Source of the DNA: an uncultured Myxococcales bacterium
Lineage (GTDB): Bacteria > Myxococcota_A > UBA9042
Assembly (NCBI GenBank): GCA_903917305.1
Contig: CAIXAA010000264.1
Span: forward strand, 1-27,740
Length of the DNA stretch: 27,740 bases
Direction: 5' to 3'
Part shown: positions 2-7,005 of the stretch, piece after piece
Layout: each line of letters begins with the position of its first letter
Position numbering within the stretch: the first letter of the stretch is position 1
The notes under the pieces: generated by a model
The model's input: only the letters and a program-made list of their open reading frames with translations
What the model was told of the DNA's origin: nothing
Databases searched by the model: none
Made by a program: the position numbers and the translations under genes

Positions 2-496
2 ACGCAGCCGGATTCGAGCCACCTGTGGCTGCTGCAAGTGCGCGTCGACCCGAGCGCGTCCAAGAAGGTGTGGGAGGAGCGCAAGAAGCTCGCGACCGAC
101 CTTCGCGACCAGATTGCCAACAAGCACGGTGACTTCGCGGCGCTGGCCAAGCAGTACTCGGGCCACGAGAGCAAGGCGCAGGGCGGCGATCTCGGTTGGC
201 TGCACGGCGGCACGCTGGCGGACGATCTGGACAAGCCGGCGGCGCTGCTCAAGGTCGGCGAGGTCTCCGGTCTGATCGAGAACATCTATGGCTTCAACAT
301 CATGAAGCTTGTCGAGAAGAGGGCGGCGCGCCAGCTGAGCTACGACGAGATCGACAAGGCGTTCTGGAAGGCGGAGCTCGAAGCCTCCTGGACGCGCGAG
401 CGGCGCGAGGCCGGCGAGGCCCGGCTGCGCAAGGGCGCGAAGATCCAGCACTTGGACACGGCCGTCGAGAAGTGCCGCCACGCGCGCTGGAACTAG
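2..496 (+). CDS. PpiC/parvulin-type peptidyl-prolyl isomerase (SurA/PrsA-like), 5'-truncated by the window edge
   Basis: Parvulin signature FAALAKQYS..ESKAQGGDLGW...GEVSGLIENIYGFNIMKL. The frame is open from base 2 (TQPDSSHLWLLQVRVDP...), so the true start lies upstream of the window. Confidence 0.85.
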   Translation, partial: TQPDSSHLWLLQVRVDPSASKKVWEERKKLATDLRDQIANKHGDFAALAKQYSGHESKAQGGDLGWLHGGTLADDLDKPAALLKVGEVSGLIENIYGFNIMKLVEKRAARQLSYDEIDKAFWKAELEASWTRERREAGEARLRKGAKIQHLDTAVEKCRHARWN

Positions 497-511: not shown

Positions 512-1864
512 TCAGTGGCACTTGTTGGCGGGATCCGAAGACGAGCAGGAACGGCGGCTCTGGTACGGGAATTCCCGAATGTTCAACCAAGGATAGAGCA
601 GGGCGCCGCGCCGCACGCCGAGCGGGCCCTGGCTGCCGTGCGCGTCGTGGCAGTAGCTGCAGCCGATCTTGTCGCCCTTCATCCAGGACGTGTGGCTGAA
701 GTGCAAGTTCGTGGCCTTCAAGGCGAACTCGCTGGCGCGGATGCCCGGGTTGCGCACCTCGGCGAGGATGTTCGTCGCACCCGGCCAGCTGCCGTCGTGG
801 CACAGCAGGCAGTAGGTCGGGGAGCTTTGCGCGGCCGGCTCCGGCAACACCATGACATTGTACGGTGTATCGTCGGAGTTGATGAGGTTGGGCACGACCG
901 TCGTGTCGCGCGGGTCCGTCAGAATGCGGCGGTCATAGGCCACCGCGGCGCGCACGACGTGCGGGTCGTGGCAGGTGCTGCAGGTCATCCGGCGCGTCTC
1001 CGTGCGGCCCAGCGGCGAGGAACTGCCGTGGCGCGAGACCGCTGTCGCCATCGCGGTGAACTGCGCCTTGTGGCACGGACCGCAGGTCAGCGGCTCCCGG
1101 TCGCGCAGCAGCGCGGTGCCTGGGGCGGCGTTGTGCGACGTGTGGCACGTCGCGCAGCCTAGGGATTGGCCGAACACCTTGCCGGGCGCATGCGCCGAGA
1201 GCGGAAACTCCCGCATGTTATGGCAAGTGCGGCACAAAATGTCGTCCTTGGCCGTGATCACCAGGAACTTGCCGAGGCCGTTGCTGTGCGCGTCGTGGCA
1301 GGACGTGCACTGCAATTTACCATTGCGATCGAGGAGATCCGCGGCGATCGAGCCGCCCAGGCCGCTCGGCGCCGTGGCGGCCGGCACGAGGCCTGCCCGC
1401 GTCGCGGAGACGCCGGCGCCGTACACCACCGACACCGGGTGATCATTGGATAAGTCCGGGCCCAGCGCCTGGCCCGTCGGCGGTCGCATCGACGCACCCG
1501 CGGCCGCATCGTTGGCCACGCGGCGCAGGGTCGGCGCGACCTGCCCGTCATGACACGACAAACACAGCTTGGAGCTGCCGTCCGGCTGCCCCGCCGCCAG
1601 CTCGCCGCGCTGGCTCTCGTACGTGCGGTACGCGAGGTCCGGCGTCACGATGTTCCACAGCGGCCCTTCGCCGCCTGCGAAGTGCGGGGTGTGGCAAAAG
1701 GCGCAGGAGTCGCCCGGCGCACCCGCCTGCGCGCCTTGCTGCGTCAAGTCGTGCGGCCCGCCGCGAATGCCGACGGTCACGCCGCGGTCGCGCGCCAAGG
1801 CAGGCATCGAGCAGAGCGTGATTGCCAGGCAGATGAAAATGCTGCGAATTCCGTTTCCATGCAT
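512..1864 (-). CDS. Secreted multiheme c-type cytochrome: 9 CXXCH plus a C-terminal CX8CH; N-terminal four-heme domain is OmcE-like
   Basis: Start reassigned to ATG 1864 (GGAG-CATGCC-ATG, just after the beta-barrel stop at 1882). Signal peptide MHGNGIRSIFICLAITLCSMPALA. Motifs: CAFCH, CLSCH, CTSCH, CRTCH, CATCH, CGPCH, CSTCH, CLLCH, CSYCH, CSSSDPANKCH. Confidence 0.9.
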   Translation of the reverse strand: MHGNGIRSIFICLAITLCSMPALARDRGVTVGIRGGPHDLTQQGAQAGAPGDSCAFCHTPHFAGGEGPLWNIVTPDLAYRTYESQRGELAAGQPDGSSKLCLSCHDGQVAPTLRRVANDAAAGASMRPPTGQALGPDLSNDHPVSVVYGAGVSATRAGLVPAATAPSGLGGSIAADLLDRNGKLQCTSCHDAHSNGLGKFLVITAKDDILCRTCHNMREFPLSAHAPGKVFGQSLGCATCHTSHNAAPGTALLRDREPLTCGPCHKAQFTAMATAVSRHGSSSPLGRTETRRMTCSTCHDPHVVRAAVAYDRRILTDPRDTTVVPNLINSDDTPYNVMVLPEPAAQSSPTYCLLCHDGSWPGATNILAEVRNPGIRASEFALKATNLHFSHTSWMKGDKIGCSYCHDAHGSQGPLGVRRGALLYPWLNIREFPYQSRRSCSSSDPANKCH

Positions 1865-1881
1865 GGCATGCTCCGTTTCCG

Positions 1882-3843
1882 TCACAGCGGACGACCGACA
1901 CTGAGGAAGACGCGGTGGTTCTGGTACTGCTGATCCGGCGTCAACCGCATCTGCAAACGATAGTCCAACCGCAGCGTGATCGCCCGCATTCGCCAGAGCA
2001 GCGTTGTTTCGCCGTCCAGCGACTTGTTGCTGATGCTCGGACTCTCCTGGTCGAGGACGCGCCAGCGCCACTCCAGCGCCGCCGGGCTGCTCGCGCTGAT
2101 GTTGCCCTCGGTGAAGGCCTCGTAGTTCTTGCGCAATTCTGTCGGCAAGTCCTGGATGATGGCGCGCACGCCGAAGGACGGTCGCACCGGTCCGATGATG
2201 CCGCGCACCGCCAAAGAGCCGTTGTATTCCGTGGTTGTTACGCCCAGGGTGCGGTAGCGCCGCGTCTCTGCCGTCGCGGAGAGCGAGCCGACGCTGGCGG
2301 ACATGCCGCCGCCCAGCGTCTCGTAGCGGTCGTGCAAGACCGCTTCGCCATCGGTGCGGCGCTGGCTCCAGCGTTCGGACAGCTCCGCGAACATCGTGAT
2401 ATTGTGGAAGTAGGACGAGAAGATGCGCGCGGAGTAGCGGTGATCGACGGCGGTGCGGCCCTGGGAGGTCTGCGTCGTGTACTGGTAGTTGACGTAGACG
2501 CTGTCGCCGTCGGGGATCTCGGTGGCGACAAGTCTGCGAATGTACGTTTGATCTCCGGCCGTGCCCACCTCGTAGTCGATGCCGAGCCGGTACTTCTTGT
2601 TGGTCGTCTGCGACAGCACCACAACGGTCAACACGCTGACATTCAAGTGCATCAGCACCGTCGGCTGCATGCCGTTGAGCGTCTGCACTTCGTTGACCGC
2701 CGACTGCGTGCCGCCCGGCAGACCGCCGTTCTCGCGCGTGCCAAGGAACTGATAGTTGTGCGACATCACAGCGAAAGAGGAGAGCCGCTTGCGGTACATC
2801 ACGTCTTCGCCCAGGGAGCCCAGCAGCTGCGAGCCGCCCGGCACCTGCTGGCCGCCGCCCTGCACCATCGTGCCGAAAAACAGGCTTTGATACAGGCGGT
2901 AGCGCGTGTCGATGCGGCCCAGCTGCTGCAGCGACGACGTCGTCTCGTCGCGCTTGGCGTTGAGCTGGTAGTCGAGGCGCGACTCCAGCTCCGGCAGCCA
3001 ACGCGCGGTGCCGAGCACCGTGAAGTACCCGTCATCACGCCGCATGTCCGAATCGCGCCGAATCCAGCGCAGCCGCGTGTCGATGCGAAAACGCCGCAGT
3101 GTCACATCGCCCGGATAGAGCACGTGGAACAGCGCCAGGTCGTGGCTCAAGTAGTTGAGATCCGTCATCTTGACGTTGTCGTACTTGTAGAAGCGGTACT
3201 CCATCGTCGCGTTCTGCCGCTCGCCGTCGTAGCGCACGTCGCCGGAGCCTTGCATGAACGTGTCGTTGCCGAAGTCCGTGCCGCCCGTGCCGAAGTCGTT
3301 GGCCATCCTCGAGAAGGCCGCGCGGACGGGGAACAGGTTGTTGCGCCAGTTCCAATCGACACCCTCGGTGGTCTTGGTCACGTCGTAATTGTTCACGAAG
3401 TCGCGGCGCACGATGTCCGTGTACTGCCGCGCGAACAGGTGCAGCGGAAAGGCCCGCGATTTCAGAATGGATGTGTCGGCGCGGTACTCGACCTTGGTGG
3501 AGTTGAACGGCACCGTCCGCGTCGTGTCATCGCTCTTCTGCTGCATGAACAGGACCGTGCCGCCCAGCTCCCACGACCAGAACTGCGGGGCCAGGATGCT
3601 GCCGCGCGCCAGGGCGCCAATGCGCTCGCCCACCAGCGCGGAGTAGCTGTGCGAGCTGTCCTTGGCGTCCTTGAACAGGTCGTAACCGCGGTACTGGTAG
3701 CCGGACACCAGCTCGTACGCGCCGCGGATGTCGTCGAAGTGCAGCCACTGCAGCTTCTTTTTCGCGGCCAGCGCCTGCGACGGGCACAGAAGCACCGCGG
3801 CGATCGCCGCCAGGAGCAGCAGCCGCGCGCGCGCCGGCTTCAT
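1882..3843 (-). CDS. Large outer-membrane beta-barrel protein of porin-cytochrome type (653 aa)
   Basis: ATG 3843 overlaps the upstream cytochrome stop (ATGA). Signal peptide MKPARARLLLLAAIAAVLLCPSQALA. Many alternating hydrophobic/polar beta-strands rich in Tyr/Trp/Arg, C-terminal strand RVFLSVGRPL, no heme motifs, and flanked by cytochrome genes. Confidence 0.75.
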   Translation of the reverse strand: MKPARARLLLLAAIAAVLLCPSQALAAKKKLQWLHFDDIRGAYELVSGYQYRGYDLFKDAKDSSHSYSALVGERIGALARGSILAPQFWSWELGGTVLFMQQKSDDTTRTVPFNSTKVEYRADTSILKSRAFPLHLFARQYTDIVRRDFVNNYDVTKTTEGVDWNWRNNLFPVRAAFSRMANDFGTGGTDFGNDTFMQGSGDVRYDGERQNATMEYRFYKYDNVKMTDLNYLSHDLALFHVLYPGDVTLRRFRIDTRLRWIRRDSDMRRDDGYFTVLGTARWLPELESRLDYQLNAKRDETTSSLQQLGRIDTRYRLYQSLFFGTMVQGGGQQVPGGSQLLGSLGEDVMYRKRLSSFAVMSHNYQFLGTRENGGLPGGTQSAVNEVQTLNGMQPTVLMHLNVSVLTVVVLSQTTNKKYRLGIDYEVGTAGDQTYIRRLVATEIPDGDSVYVNYQYTTQTSQGRTAVDHRYSARIFSSYFHNITMFAELSERWSQRRTDGEAVLHDRYETLGGGMSASVGSLSATAETRRYRTLGVTTTEYNGSLAVRGIIGPVRPSFGVRAIIQDLPTELRKNYEAFTEGNISASSPAALEWRWRVLDQESPSISNKSLDGETTLLWRMRAITLRLDYRLQMRLTPDQQYQNHRVFLSVGRPL

Positions 3844-4769
3844 CGGGCGCCTCCGGCCTTGGGCACCTTGCGCGGCGCGCTCTTGGGATCCGGCCGCAGC
3901 ATGTAGCGCTTGCCGGAGCCGTGCGGATCGTGGCACTTCGTGCAGCCCTTCAAGTCTCCGTTTTCATGCGGGGAGCGGCTGCGCAGGTCGGCTTCCAGGT
4001 GGCAGTGGTTGCAGAGGGCGTCGCCGCGGATCTTGAGCAGCGACTTCTCCTTGCCGCCGTGGCCGCCGTGGCACAGCGTGCACATGCCGGCCGCCACCGG
4101 GCCGTGCAGGGGCGCGCGTTTGCGCATATCGTTGAAATGGCAGCGACCGCACACCTGCAGGCCGGTCTTCAAGAACGACGGGCCCTTGCCGCCGTGGCCG
4201 TCGTGGCAGTCGGTGCAGTTGCGGTCTGTTCCCAAGGGCTTGTGGCGCGTGGCGAAGCGCGTCTCTTTGTAGTCGTGGCAGTGGGCGCAGAGCTTCTCGG
4301 GCGTCTCGCGCAGAAGCTTTTGCCATTCGCTTTGATGCGGCTCATGGCAGACGAGGCAGGAGCCATCGCCGACCGGAGCGTGCGCCGGCACCAGGATGAC
4401 CTTCTCCTTCTTGTGGCACGTCAGGCACAGATCCGAAGCGCGCACCAGCGGTCCGCGATCGATGATGTCGTGGCAGGCGCGGCACTGCCGGTTCAGCCAG
4501 GGCGGATGCTCGCTGTGCTGCGGAAAGATGGCGCTTTCGCCGGCATCGCCGGTCAGCGTGTCGGTCTGCACCGTGTCGCGCATGCTCTCCGGCGGCGGCA
4601 CGCCGTCGAAGAAGAACGACAGCACTTCATGGCGTTGTTCTGGCGTGTGGCAGCCCGTCGCCAGCAGCGCGACGATCAGCAGCAAGCAACGGACGGCCGT
4701 GCAGCCTGCGCGGCCTGGGACCGGTGCAGCGCAAGCTGGAGGCTCGTCCGGAGGGTTCGCCACGGCCAC
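3840..4769 (-). CDS. Nonaheme c-type cytochrome lipoprotein (paired CXXCH...H type)
   Basis: Probable GTG start at 4769 with GAGG 6 nt upstream; exact start uncertain. Lipobox LLATG-C. Motifs: CRACH, CLTCH, CLVCH, CAHCH, CTDCH, CGRCH, CTLCH, CNHCH, CTKCH. Confidence 0.88.
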   Translation of the reverse strand: MAVANPPDEPPACAAPVPGRAGCTAVRCLLLIVALLATGCHTPEQRHEVLSFFFDGVPPPESMRDTVQTDTLTGDAGESAIFPQHSEHPPWLNRQCRACHDIIDRGPLVRASDLCLTCHKKEKVILVPAHAPVGDGSCLVCHEPHQSEWQKLLRETPEKLCAHCHDYKETRFATRHKPLGTDRNCTDCHDGHGGKGPSFLKTGLQVCGRCHFNDMRKRAPLHGPVAAGMCTLCHGGHGGKEKSLLKIRGDALCNHCHLEADLRSRSPHENGDLKGCTKCHDPHGSGKRYMLRPDPKSAPRKVPKAGGAR

Positions 4770-4785: not shown

Positions 4786-6015
4786 TCAGGGCGCCTTGGG
4801 CGTCGTAGCCGGCTCGGGGAGATCTTCGACGTCGCCCAAGCCCTTGGGAGTCGTCGGTGCGGCCGTGCCTGATGGCACTGCTGCCTTGGCAGGCGCCGGC
4901 AGGTCCTTCTCCGGTCCCAGCCAATCGCCGAATCCGTAGACATTCACGCGGCGTGCGCCGTACTGGCTGACCACGAGGATGACATGGCGCACCTTGAGCC
5001 GCACATCGGCCAGCTTCTGGAAGCGCTCGATGCCCCGCGCCGAGATGTCGATGCCCGCCGGCAGCACCAGGTTGCCCGGATCGTTGCCCGGGCCGCCAAA
5101 GAACAGCAGCAGTTGTCCATCCTTGTCGAAGATCTGCACGTTCTCGAACGCGGCGTCGACGGCATACAGCCGCCCATCCGGGTCGATCGCCACGCCCTTG
5201 GGCCGCGAGAAGCCGCCAGGACCGTCGCCCAGGCCGCCGTACATGCGCACGTGGGTGCCGTCCGGGTGCAGGCGCTGCACGCGGAAGTTGCCGGTCTCCG
5301 AGACGTAGAGGTCGCCGTCGGGCCCGACCGCGACGTTGGTCGGGATGTAGAACTTGCCCGGATCCTTGCCGCCGCCGCCGATGCGGCGCTTGACGGCGCC
5401 GGTCAGCCGGTCGAACACGATGATGTCGTTGTTCTTGAGGTTGCAGACGTAGACCTCGTCGTCCTTCACCGCGACGCCGGCGGCCTTCATCAAGCCTTCG
5501 GTGCCGTAGGCGCGCAGGAACGACTCGTCGGGGCCGTAGGCGAGCACCTGGTTGCGGGTGCCGTCCGCGACGTAGATGGTGCCGTCGGGCGTCGAGGTGA
5601 CCTGCATCGGTTGGCGCGCGCGGCCGCCGCCGGTGTTGCCCTTGAGCGGGCGGAACTCGTGGGCGGCCAGATCGAGAACGAAGATCTCGTGCGCACTTGC
5701 GTCCGACACGACGACGCGATCGCCGACGAGTGAGGCGCTGTACGGCTTGCCCAGCCCGCCCTTGGACGCGTCGTCCTTGCCGACGACGAACTCCGACAGG
5801 GCGCTGGTTTGCTCGATGTCCTCGGCCGACGTGTAGGACGTGAGGAACTGGATGCGCGGCCGGTTGGGCAGGGGCGGGTAGAAGACGGCGCTGCCCTTGC
5901 CGTTGTCGGTCGCGCCGCTGCACGCGGACAGCAGGGCGATCAGCGCACAAACGGCCCAGGATCCGAGGCGGGTCACTGGATGGTCAGACTTGGGATGGGG
6001 ATGAGGACCGGGCAT
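4786..6015 (-). CDS. NHL-repeat 6-bladed beta-propeller lipoprotein
   Basis: ATG 6015 with AGGA 7 nt upstream. Lipobox LLSA-C. N-terminal FYPPLPNRPRIQFL. Repeated NHL blades: PTNVAVGPDGDLYVSETGNFRVQ, RPKGVAIDPDGRLYAVDAAFENVQIF, QPMQVTSTPDGTIYVADGTRNQV. Confidence 0.9.
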   Translation of the reverse strand: MPGPHPHPKSDHPVTRLGSWAVCALIALLSACSGATDNGKGSAVFYPPLPNRPRIQFLTSYTSAEDIEQTSALSEFVVGKDDASKGGLGKPYSASLVGDRVVVSDASAHEIFVLDLAAHEFRPLKGNTGGGRARQPMQVTSTPDGTIYVADGTRNQVLAYGPDESFLRAYGTEGLMKAAGVAVKDDEVYVCNLKNNDIIVFDRLTGAVKRRIGGGGKDPGKFYIPTNVAVGPDGDLYVSETGNFRVQRLHPDGTHVRMYGGLGDGPGGFSRPKGVAIDPDGRLYAVDAAFENVQIFDKDGQLLLFFGGPGNDPGNLVLPAGIDISARGIERFQKLADVRLKVRHVILVVSQYGARRVNVYGFGDWLGPEKDLPAPAKAAVPSGTAAPTTPKGLGDVEDLPEPATTPKAP

Positions 6016-6297: not shown

Positions 6298-6933
6298 TTA
6301 CTTGTTGTGGCAGGACAGGCACAGCGCGCTGCCGTTGTTCAGCATGCGCAGGAACTTGCCCTTGGAGTTGTCATGGACGCTATGGCACGTGGCGCACTGC
6401 ATCTGGGCTCCGAAGAGCGGCAGAATGCTGGCTGCGTCGACGTACTTGTCGCTGACCGGGCTCTTGAGGCCACCGTCCGACGTGGCCAGGGCCGCGTCGT
6501 ACGTGAACGAAATCGGGTGATCATTGGTCAGATCAGTCCCGAGCTTCGCGCCACCCGGATCCATGAAGTGCGTACCAGCGTTGCCGCCGTACGAGTCCAG
6601 CGCGACGGTACCGTCGTGGCAGGACAGGCACAGCTTGGACGTACCCGTCGGCTGACCGACGACTGCGTTCAAGGTAGCGCTGGTGTAAGCACTAAAGGTC
6701 GCAACAGTCACAGCGTGGTTCCACAGCGGGGCGCCCGGGACGGCCTGAGCGTTGTGTGGCGTGTGACAGAAAATGCAGATCTGGGTTGTACCCCAGCCCT
6801 GCGCGGAAAGGTCGTGGGCCGTACCAGCGATGCCAGCTTGCGCATCACGGGCCGGAGCCAGAACCACAAGCAACAGACCGGTCAGCACCATTGCTGCCGT
6901 CGTCAAGAAAGGAAACCGGCTAAGAGATCTCAT
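6298..6933 (-). CDS. omcE: OmcE-like tetraheme c-type cytochrome, candidate cytochrome-nanowire subunit (211 aa, ~178 aa mature)
   Basis: ATG 6933 with GGGAGG 7 nt upstream. Sec signal ending AQA. Motif order matches Geobacter OmcE as recalled: HDLS, CIFCHTPHNAQ, PLWN, SKLCLSCHDG, LGTDLTNDHP, CATCHSVHDN, FLR, GSALCLSCH at the extreme C-terminus. Confidence 0.8.
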   Translation of the reverse strand: MRSLSRFPFLTTAAMVLTGLLLVVLAPARDAQAGIAGTAHDLSAQGWGTTQICIFCHTPHNAQAVPGAPLWNHAVTVATFSAYTSATLNAVVGQPTGTSKLCLSCHDGTVALDSYGGNAGTHFMDPGGAKLGTDLTNDHPISFTYDAALATSDGGLKSPVSDKYVDAASILPLFGAQMQCATCHSVHDNSKGKFLRMLNNGSALCLSCHNK

Positions 6934-6956
6934 TACCATTCCTCCCAATGTGGGTC

Positions 6957-7005
6957 GACGACCCGTCTTGCTGCGCATGCAGCGGAACGAGTAGACGACC
7001 CGTCT
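6957..7005. repeat. 12-bp direct repeat GACGACCCGTCT (6957-6968 and 6994-7005), each copy self-complementary (GACG-N3-CGTC), in the omcE-like 5' UTR
   Basis: Two exact copies read directly, 37 nt apart, between the sigma54 motif and the RBS. Confidence 0.7.

Follow-up and report, generated by a model that had tools for sequence, protein, structure and literature searches.

How cytochrome nanowires start, attach to the cell, are fed with electrons and end is an open question, and the last gene of an operon in an uncultured Myxococcales bacterium raises it in a concrete form. The operon lies in a stretch of 27,740 nucleotides (assembly GCA_903917305.1, contig CAIXAA010000264.1, positions 1 to 27,740 of the forward strand; hereafter the window), which belongs to a genome assembly of 5.6 Mb in 998 contigs obtained from lake-water metagenomes. 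It encodes a small tetrahaem cytochrome resembling the filament subunit OmcE, here called P0002, and it ends with the gene of a larger multihaem cytochrome, P0001, whose N-terminal part resembles the same subunit. An earlier note, made from the DNA letters alone, had proposed that the larger protein is a chimeric paralogue of the smaller one and docks on one end of its filament.

In a filament of OmcE, each subunit has one haem whose sixth ligand is a histidine provided by its neighbour (PMC9473688; PMC12954529). The polymer therefore has an unsatisfied haem at one end and a spare histidine at the other. Petersen et al. described the ideal anchor as a protein that resembles OmcE but has nine histidines for four haems, and their 2026 paper on OmcE bundles of Desulfuromonas soudanensis reported no anchor or tip candidate encoded in omcE operons, apparently without considering the OmcE-like head of a P0001-type gene (PMC13712944). 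We consider the P0001 family to be the best encoded candidate for such a piece. Our tentative reading is that P0001 is a minor subunit located at the end of the filament and caps an OmcE-like polymer at its haem-4 end, most probably as a cell-proximal nucleator and anchor joined to an MtrB-like barrel and a lipoprotein cytochrome encoded in the same operon.

Architecture of P0001

The features of the P0001 gene and protein, together with the gene of the proposed partner, are as follows:

512-1864, minus strand: whole P0001 coding sequence, stop codon included; 450 amino acids, a cytochrome with nine CXXCH motifs and one CX8CH motif; start codon backed by GGAG-N6-ATG
1871-1874, minus strand: Shine-Dalgarno-like GGAG, 6 nt ahead of the P0001 ATG, as read from the sequence
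1793-1864, minus strand: signal peptide, residues 1-24, of the Sec/signal peptidase I type, with cleavage at ALA|RD and without a lipobox
1217-1783, minus strand: domain A, residues 28-216, OmcE-like tetrahaem domain with haems 1-4 and distal His61, His142 and His193
1751-1753, minus strand: codon of His38, the arm histidine near the N-terminus, within the HDL motif; putative donor of a ligand to the haem of a neighbouring subunit
1040-1216, minus strand: dihaem bridge, residues 217-275, a paired-CXXCH module with His225, haems 5-6 and His244
515-1039, minus strand: domain B, residues 276-450, divergent OmcE-like domain with an arm-like His279, haems 7-10, and His302, His388, His391 and His409
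515-547, minus strand: C440-X8-C449-H450 at the C-terminus, a possible tenth haem site judged by its motif; the fourth CXXCH of the small subunits is equally terminal
6298-6933, minus strand: P0002, the small OmcE-like tetrahaem subunit and proposed partner (7tfs, E 7.7e-32; 9yuq, E 1.8e-24)

The P0001 reading frame begins with an ATG at 1864 and runs on the minus strand to its final codon (450) at 515-517 and a stop at 514-512; a gap of 17 nt separates it from the stop codon of the barrel gene upstream. CXXCH motifs start at residues 54, 101, 186, 211, 237, 261, 295, 352 and 402, and four of them lie in the OmcE-like head and five after it. The five further motifs and the CX8CH that the earlier note had counted behind the head were confirmed, at residues 237-402 and 440-450, respectively. 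Judged from its sequence, P0001 is a secreted cytochrome with ten predicted haem sites in three modules. The division into domain A, bridge and domain B at residues 28-216, 217-275 and 276-450 was drawn because of the profile and motif matches of the extension, which are described below.

The likeness of the head to the filament subunit is extensive. The alignment of P0001 residues 27-216 with P0002 spans 193 columns with 40% identity (E 4e-36, a value well out of the reach of chance), and it shows every pair of motifs by which the earlier note had paralleled the N-terminal domain with the small subunit. Domain A also matches the solved OmcE filament subunits (9yuq, E 9.5e-24; 7tfs, E 2.2e-17). 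An AlphaFold2 model of P0001, which has a mean predicted local distance difference test score (pLDDT) of 64.8 and is good at residues 130-300 and poor beyond residue 310, has a sole significant Foldseek match in the PDB, again 7tfs (E 7e-5, template modelling score 0.58 on the target). The OmcE pattern is retained in domain A, with haem motifs at C54, C101, C186 and C211 and the histidines His38, His61, His142 and His193. His38 is nearly invariant across 120 members of the P0001 family, aligns with the histidine of the HDL or HDF motif in small subunits, 7tfs and 9yuq, and lies 6-12 residues from the mature N-terminus across the family. The earlier note had named loss of the N-terminal interface residues as something that would speak against docking; P0001 has lost neither the arm histidine nor any haem ligand that belongs to the OmcE fold. 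Where P0001 departs from OmcE is in its length. The small subunits end 1-2 residues past their fourth CXXCH in all 57 sequences examined, whereas P0001 runs for 235 residues further. P0001 therefore holds OmcE-like domains, and is not itself an OmcE-type subunit.

The extension consists of the bridge, all of whose cysteines and histidines are invariant, and of domain B. The bridge matches the Pfam families Paired_CXXCH_1 and Cytochrome_C7, and has a partial MtrA/DmsE-like match. The MtrA/DmsE decahaem model TIGR03508 scores 61.3 bits against P0001, with a cut-off of 192.2, and covers residues 181-300 only; the MtrC-type domain PF22113 is absent from the Pfam matches of P0001. When a profile of 54 small subunits was compared with a profile of 58 extensions using hhalign, the two aligned with a probability of 97.4% (E 1.6e-11), and the single sequence agrees. 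In this alignment the subunits' arm histidine, first CXXCH-xx-H and second CXXCH-DG pair with His279, C295-H299-H302 and C352-H356-DG of P0001, while haem 9 (C402-H406-H409) matches the subunits' third haem motif at 87.8%. Searched against the PDB, the extension profile finds MtrA (1.3e-12), 7tfs (8.5e-10), 9yuq (2.2e-9) and OmcS (6.6e-8). Foldseek on the AlphaFold2 model returned no match for the extension, and its ESM Atlas matches were generic multihaem clusters alone. We also considered a C-terminal module common to P0001 and two other cytochromes of the window, and rejected it: the pairwise BLAST matches reached only E 1e-3 to 1e-4 and were mostly motif-driven.

Distribution, gene order and ancestry of the family

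A word-seeded search found 3,445 relatives of P0001 among 8,000 candidates scored. With one genome per species, at least 593 encode a relative (593 of the 600 pattern matches listed). In 17 relatives with 40-53% identity, the length and the set of nine CXXCH and one CX8CH are the same as in P0001, and every haem cysteine and histidine plus eleven further histidines are invariant, the C-terminal CX8CH included. Another 99 relatives (30-39% identity, 540-600 amino acids) align over the full length and have 11 CXXCH motifs and, at the position of the CX8CH, a C-terminal CX3CH. Across the alignment of 120 sequences, the first eight CXXCH motifs and eight further histidines are invariant, and C449 and H450 are nearly so. 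By these alignments P0001 is a shorter, 9+1-haem variant of a very large family. A lipobox is absent in 75 of 80 family members.

The best 80 loci span ten or more phyla and include Myxococcota, Planctomycetota, Verrucomicrobiota, Kiritimatiellota, Calditrichota, Ignavibacteria/Bacteroidota, Thermodesulfobacteriota, Pseudomonadota and Nitrospirota, as well as Deferribacter abyssi and Geomonas paludis. In these loci the gene order is nearly universal: a small OmcE-like gene, an NHL propeller, a five-haem (sometimes larger) cytochrome, a barrel, often a second NHL propeller, and the P0001-family gene last. The second propeller is missing from the window and from its two nearest relatives (L007 and L008). 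We regarded the 58 loci with at least 7 kb of upstream sequence as evaluable. A small OmcE-like gene is nearby in 55 of them and the full upstream order in 39, and in the genomes of the remaining three loci small OmcE-like open frames occur elsewhere. Thus, the co-occurrence of the larger protein with omcE-like genes, which the earlier note had wanted surveyed, proved to be very consistent.

To place the head relative to the small subunits, a maximum-likelihood tree was built from 141 OmcE-like domains (81 P0001-family heads, 57 small subunits and 3 others). A single change separates the heads from the small subunits, and P0002 clusters with its own genomic paralogues rather than with P0001. 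The head of P0001 is therefore an ancient paralogue and not a recent duplicate, and the two kinds of domain have long been kept side by side. The description of P0001 as a paralogue of the filament subunit is thus borne out, but the word 'chimeric' in the earlier note is misleading, since the three-module architecture is ancient and conserved, and not the product of a recent fusion.

Within the Myxococcales genome there is one P0001-family gene as against four small-subunit genes, and a single end piece may serve several filament subunits. The other small OmcE-like genes (G000:C412:4205-4813(-), G000:C235:7877-8470(+) and G000:C946:3479-4294(+)) have 90%, 70% and about 46-56% identity to P0002, respectively, and no barrel, lipoprotein cytochrome or P0001-like gene adjoins them on their short contigs.

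A second, much larger kind of OmcE-headed cytochrome was observed in three of the loci (L018:16221-19502, L042:17235-19589 and L071:12475-14841). These proteins have 17-24 CXXCH motifs from the head onward, counted in the stop-to-stop frame. In each case an additional NHL propeller gene immediately precedes the cytochrome gene, and the canonical cluster is a few kb away.

Predicted contact between P0001 and the small subunit

We co-folded residues 26-450 of P0001 with two copies of P0002, haem-free. The interaction prediction score from aligned errors (ipSAE) was 0.57, 0.59 and 0.63, compared with 0.00, 0.00 and 0.09 for three controls, a result with the verdict 'weak support' under a mark that 58 of 80 solved complexes pass, as do 2 of 110 mismatched pairs. 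The interface comprises, on the P0001 side, residues 32-34, 41, 50-69, 179-180 and 193, which belong to the arm and the haem-1 face, and on the subunit side, with the chain numbering of 1-182 as we interpreted it, the region of the DHP histidine, the second cysteine of haem 3, the haem-4 motif and the last residue. The second copy of P0002 made no confident contact with P0001. The model weakly suggests that the P0001 head docks head-to-tail on the haem-4/C-terminal face of a subunit. The claim of the earlier note that the protein docks on one filament end thus stands to the extent that a weak, haem-free interface was found on one end of the subunit, well above the best control, and actual binding is a prediction.

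The number of histidines was a second source of information. With 21 invariant histidines for 10 haem sites, P0001 has one histidine beyond its own need, and domain B alone has nine for four sites, the ratio named for the ideal anchor (PMC13712944). This count would support an anchor role, although it is suggestive only, for a reason given below.

Taken together, we infer the docking of P0001, its polarity and its cell-proximal location as parts of the end-subunit reading, which could work as follows. P0001 would bind with its short N-terminal arm, including His38, and its haem-1 face to the haem-4/C-terminal side of an OmcE-like subunit, and His38 would supply the axial histidine that is missing from the last subunit of the polymer. 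The bridge would fill the haem-4 face of domain A in cis, so that no further subunit would add there, and the six further haems of P0001 would pass electrons onward. From a cell-proximal position, P0001 would nucleate and anchor the filament, wiring it to the MtrB-like barrel and the lipoprotein cytochrome.

The operon and its surroundings

The remaining genes of the operon, which all lie on the minus strand, are closely spaced and are followed by P0001 as the last gene, are these:

4786-6015, minus strand: NHL beta-propeller lipoprotein with the lipobox LSAC
3840-4721, minus strand: lipoprotein cytochrome with nine CXXCH motifs and the lipobox LATGC; start codon uncertain
1882-3843, minus strand: outer-membrane beta-barrel of 653 amino acids, directly upstream of P0001; AlphaFold2 pLDDT 84.8, with about 30 long strands

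The best PDB match of the barrel model is MtrB (6r2q_B, E 5.3e-8), which ranks above TonB-dependent receptors, ushers and LptD. The barrel has zero Pfam or NCBIfam matches, though its family is conserved across phyla. At about residues 396-438, four short strands and a short helix lie amid the long strands, and may form an inserted plug or loop domain. The stop codon of the lipoprotein cytochrome gene overlaps the ATG of the barrel gene (ATGA, 3840-3843), which suggests that the two are translationally coupled. On the other strand, at 2-496 (plus), the window contains a gene for a PpiC-type peptidyl-prolyl isomerase (Pfam Rotamase, E 4e-18) that is convergent to P0001; the uet cluster, to which we return below, also has a peptidyl-prolyl isomerase (UetB).

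In P0002, His73 in the motif LWNH, a ninth conserved histidine, is nearly invariant among the small subunits of such clusters (at least 90% of 54 sequences). This position is an arginine in the OmcE proteins of Geobacter sulfurreducens and D. soudanensis, and there is no histidine at it in the P0001 family.

Contigs of RNA libraries from peat and wetland metatranscriptomes match the operon at about 98-99% identity. The P0002 gene is covered at a word depth of 6-11 (6360-6994 of the window); the rest of the operon is covered patchily and P0001 hardly at all, the depth of assembler contigs being a poor measure of expression. As weak evidence, this coverage fits a major/minor ratio of P0002 to P0001. 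Close relatives of the P0002 gene seem to be present, and are probably expressed, in peat and wetland habitats.

Points against an end subunit, and other explanations

Several observations weigh against the proposal that P0001 is an anchoring end subunit. The P0001 family is known here from sequence and models alone. P0001 has no lipid anchor signal, its contact with the barrel is putative, and its placement at the proximal rather than the distal end of a filament is drawn by analogy. Asymmetric conservation favouring the N-terminal face of domain A was looked for, and the expected pattern was not seen; when heads and small subunits were cross-scored by alignment column, the mean was 1.06 at the N-terminal face, 1.79 at the haem-4 face and 1.35 in the rest. 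As to the co-fold, the range up to an ipSAE of 0.60 holds only 7 of the 80 solved complexes in the calibration, plus both mismatches, and the haem-free run may have passed because the predictor had learned the solved OmcE filament. The 11-CXXCH relatives have 12 sites and 26 histidines (2n+2), and the '2n+1' argument from the histidine count is therefore inexact. Finally, domain B is poorly modelled, with a pLDDT below 50 over residues 378-450, and as it ends like a subunit, its far face might accept one.

These points leave room for three other explanations. The best of them, though we think it somewhat unlikely, is that P0001 is a free-standing cytochrome of a conduit, i.e., an extracellular or barrel-inserted haem wire (cf. 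MtrC/OmcB, MtrA and UetJ) that shares ancestry with OmcE without docking on a filament, while the small subunit polymerises or acts independently. Such a role would agree with the position of the P0001 gene next to genes for an MtrB-like barrel and a lipoprotein multihaem cytochrome, with the partial MtrA/DmsE-like matches of P0001, with the three loci that have no small subunit nearby, and with the model of UetJ as an extracellular 'haem wire' in the uet literature (bioRxiv 10.1101/2022.05.06.490989). The conservation of both faces of domain A fits as well; it would likewise be expected if the faces served only the internal structure of the protein. However, a free-standing wire leaves unexplained why the arm histidine is kept in nearly all family members, why every evaluable genome has a small subunit, and why a head-to-tail interface is reproducibly co-folded. 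Furthermore, MtrC and OmcB are lipoproteins and P0001 is not, and the score of P0001 against the DmsE family is far under the cut-off (61 versus 192 bits).

In an improbable variant of the end-subunit reading itself, P0001 would be assembled first and stay at the far, distal end of the filament, where its six extra, more exposed haems would contact minerals, electrodes or partner cells. The polarity of docking is identical in both cases, P0001 is without a membrane anchor, and chaperone-usher operons often end with the gene of the tip adhesin. With P0001 at the tip, however, the filament would still have no encoded link to the barrel, and the bridge and tail resemble modules of periplasmic or barrel-inserted wires, not the surface domains of the MtrC type; the model of residues 310-450, the part that bears on haem exposure, is poor.

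Least probable of all is that P0001, with an OmcE-like domain at each end, is an in-line or self-polymerising unit that forms a thicker or 'leaky' wire or a joint, as could be supposed from the end of domain B right after its last haem motif, like in the small subunits, and from the suggestion elsewhere that five-haem OmcE-like proteins are a new nanowire family, since the second subunit copy lacks a confident contact with domain B in the co-fold, an extra conserved histidine of that domain (in HxxH, His388/His391) could close the open haem in cis, and P0001 has one genomic copy versus four small-subunit genes and a low apparent RNA signal.

Implications

We therefore retain, as a tentative proposal, the reading of P0001 as an end-of-filament subunit. 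Its extension to the whole family is bolder, and we regard it as rather doubtful: the P0001 family would be the missing nucleator and anchor of OmcE-type nanowires in ten or more phyla, including the Geobacteraceae, with each member a covalent pseudo-dimer in or on an MtrB-like barrel that seeds polymerisation by offering its arm histidine to the open haem of the first subunit and couples the wire electrically to the periplasm, and that serves electron uptake in uet-type clusters. If true, the family would provide a concrete, testable part both for the assembly of the wire and for its electrical junction with the outer-membrane conduit. Its genes would also mark out which genomes encode a whole wire system and which have only isolated OmcE-like genes, and could be used to engineer anchored wires in different hosts. 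If false, the P0001 family would still be a very widespread and unstudied outer-surface cytochrome.

In a literature search, we found no paper that gives the P0001 family a role at the end of a filament. The family has nevertheless appeared in publications before, as a nameless cytochrome of these clusters and probably as UetJ. In a peat preprint, large cytochromes of verrucomicrobial clusters are called 'OmcE-like'.

Comparison with known systems

The closest known relative of the head is OmcE, as solved from G. sulfurreducens (7TFS) and D. soudanensis (9YUQ). Domain A is like OmcE in the spacing of its CXXCH motifs and in four extra histidines, including that of HDL, and domain B repeats the OmcE pattern in degenerate form. 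However, OmcE has about 200 amino acids and its C-terminus at the fourth haem motif, whereas P0001 has 450 amino acids and ten predicted haem sites and belongs to a separate, ancient clade. The omcE clusters themselves also offer a parallel: a full-length homologue of P0001 ends the omcE cluster of Geomonas paludis (L084:9962-11638), in the same operon position. Homologues of this type have 11 CXXCH motifs and a CX3CH, in contrast to the nine CXXCH and one CX8CH of P0001, whose operon is also without the second propeller. Neither GSU0615 nor GSU0616, the cytochromes beside omcE in G. sulfurreducens, could be mapped to the P0001 family.

The gene order of the window recalls the uet cluster of 'Candidatus Tenderia electrophaga', which encodes the tetrahaem cytochrome UetA, the peptidyl-prolyl isomerase UetB, the barrel UetC, the NHL proteins UetH/I and, last, the undecahaem cytochrome UetJ (bioRxiv 10.1101/2022.05.06.490989; also in Gallionella, PMC10734462). 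With a signal peptide and 11-12 haem motifs, UetJ is a predicted extracellular protein, and an interaction between UetJ and UetA has been suggested (bioRxiv 10.1101/2022.05.06.490989; PMC10734462). Our likening of P0001 to UetJ draws on gene order and haem count as given in these papers, and not on a comparison of sequences. The uet cluster differs in having trihaem c7 proteins and a cupredoxin, which the window lacks, and Uet has been proposed to serve electron uptake rather than export.

With the MtrCAB/Pcc conduits (6R2Q), the operon shares a large MtrB-like barrel flanked by multihaem cytochromes, and the bridge of P0001 matches modules of MtrA. P0001 differs in that it has no MtrC-type domain above threshold and is not a lipoprotein, and the Mtr systems are without a polymerising subunit. 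By analogy, P0001 could be compared with CsgB of curli and with the terminator and anchor pilins of chaperone-usher systems, as a minor paralogue of the major subunit that comes from the same operon and could template or end polymerisation at the cell surface. The folds and the chemistry are unrelated, however: the bond that P0001 is predicted to make would include ligation of a haem iron by a histidine, and it would conduct electrons.

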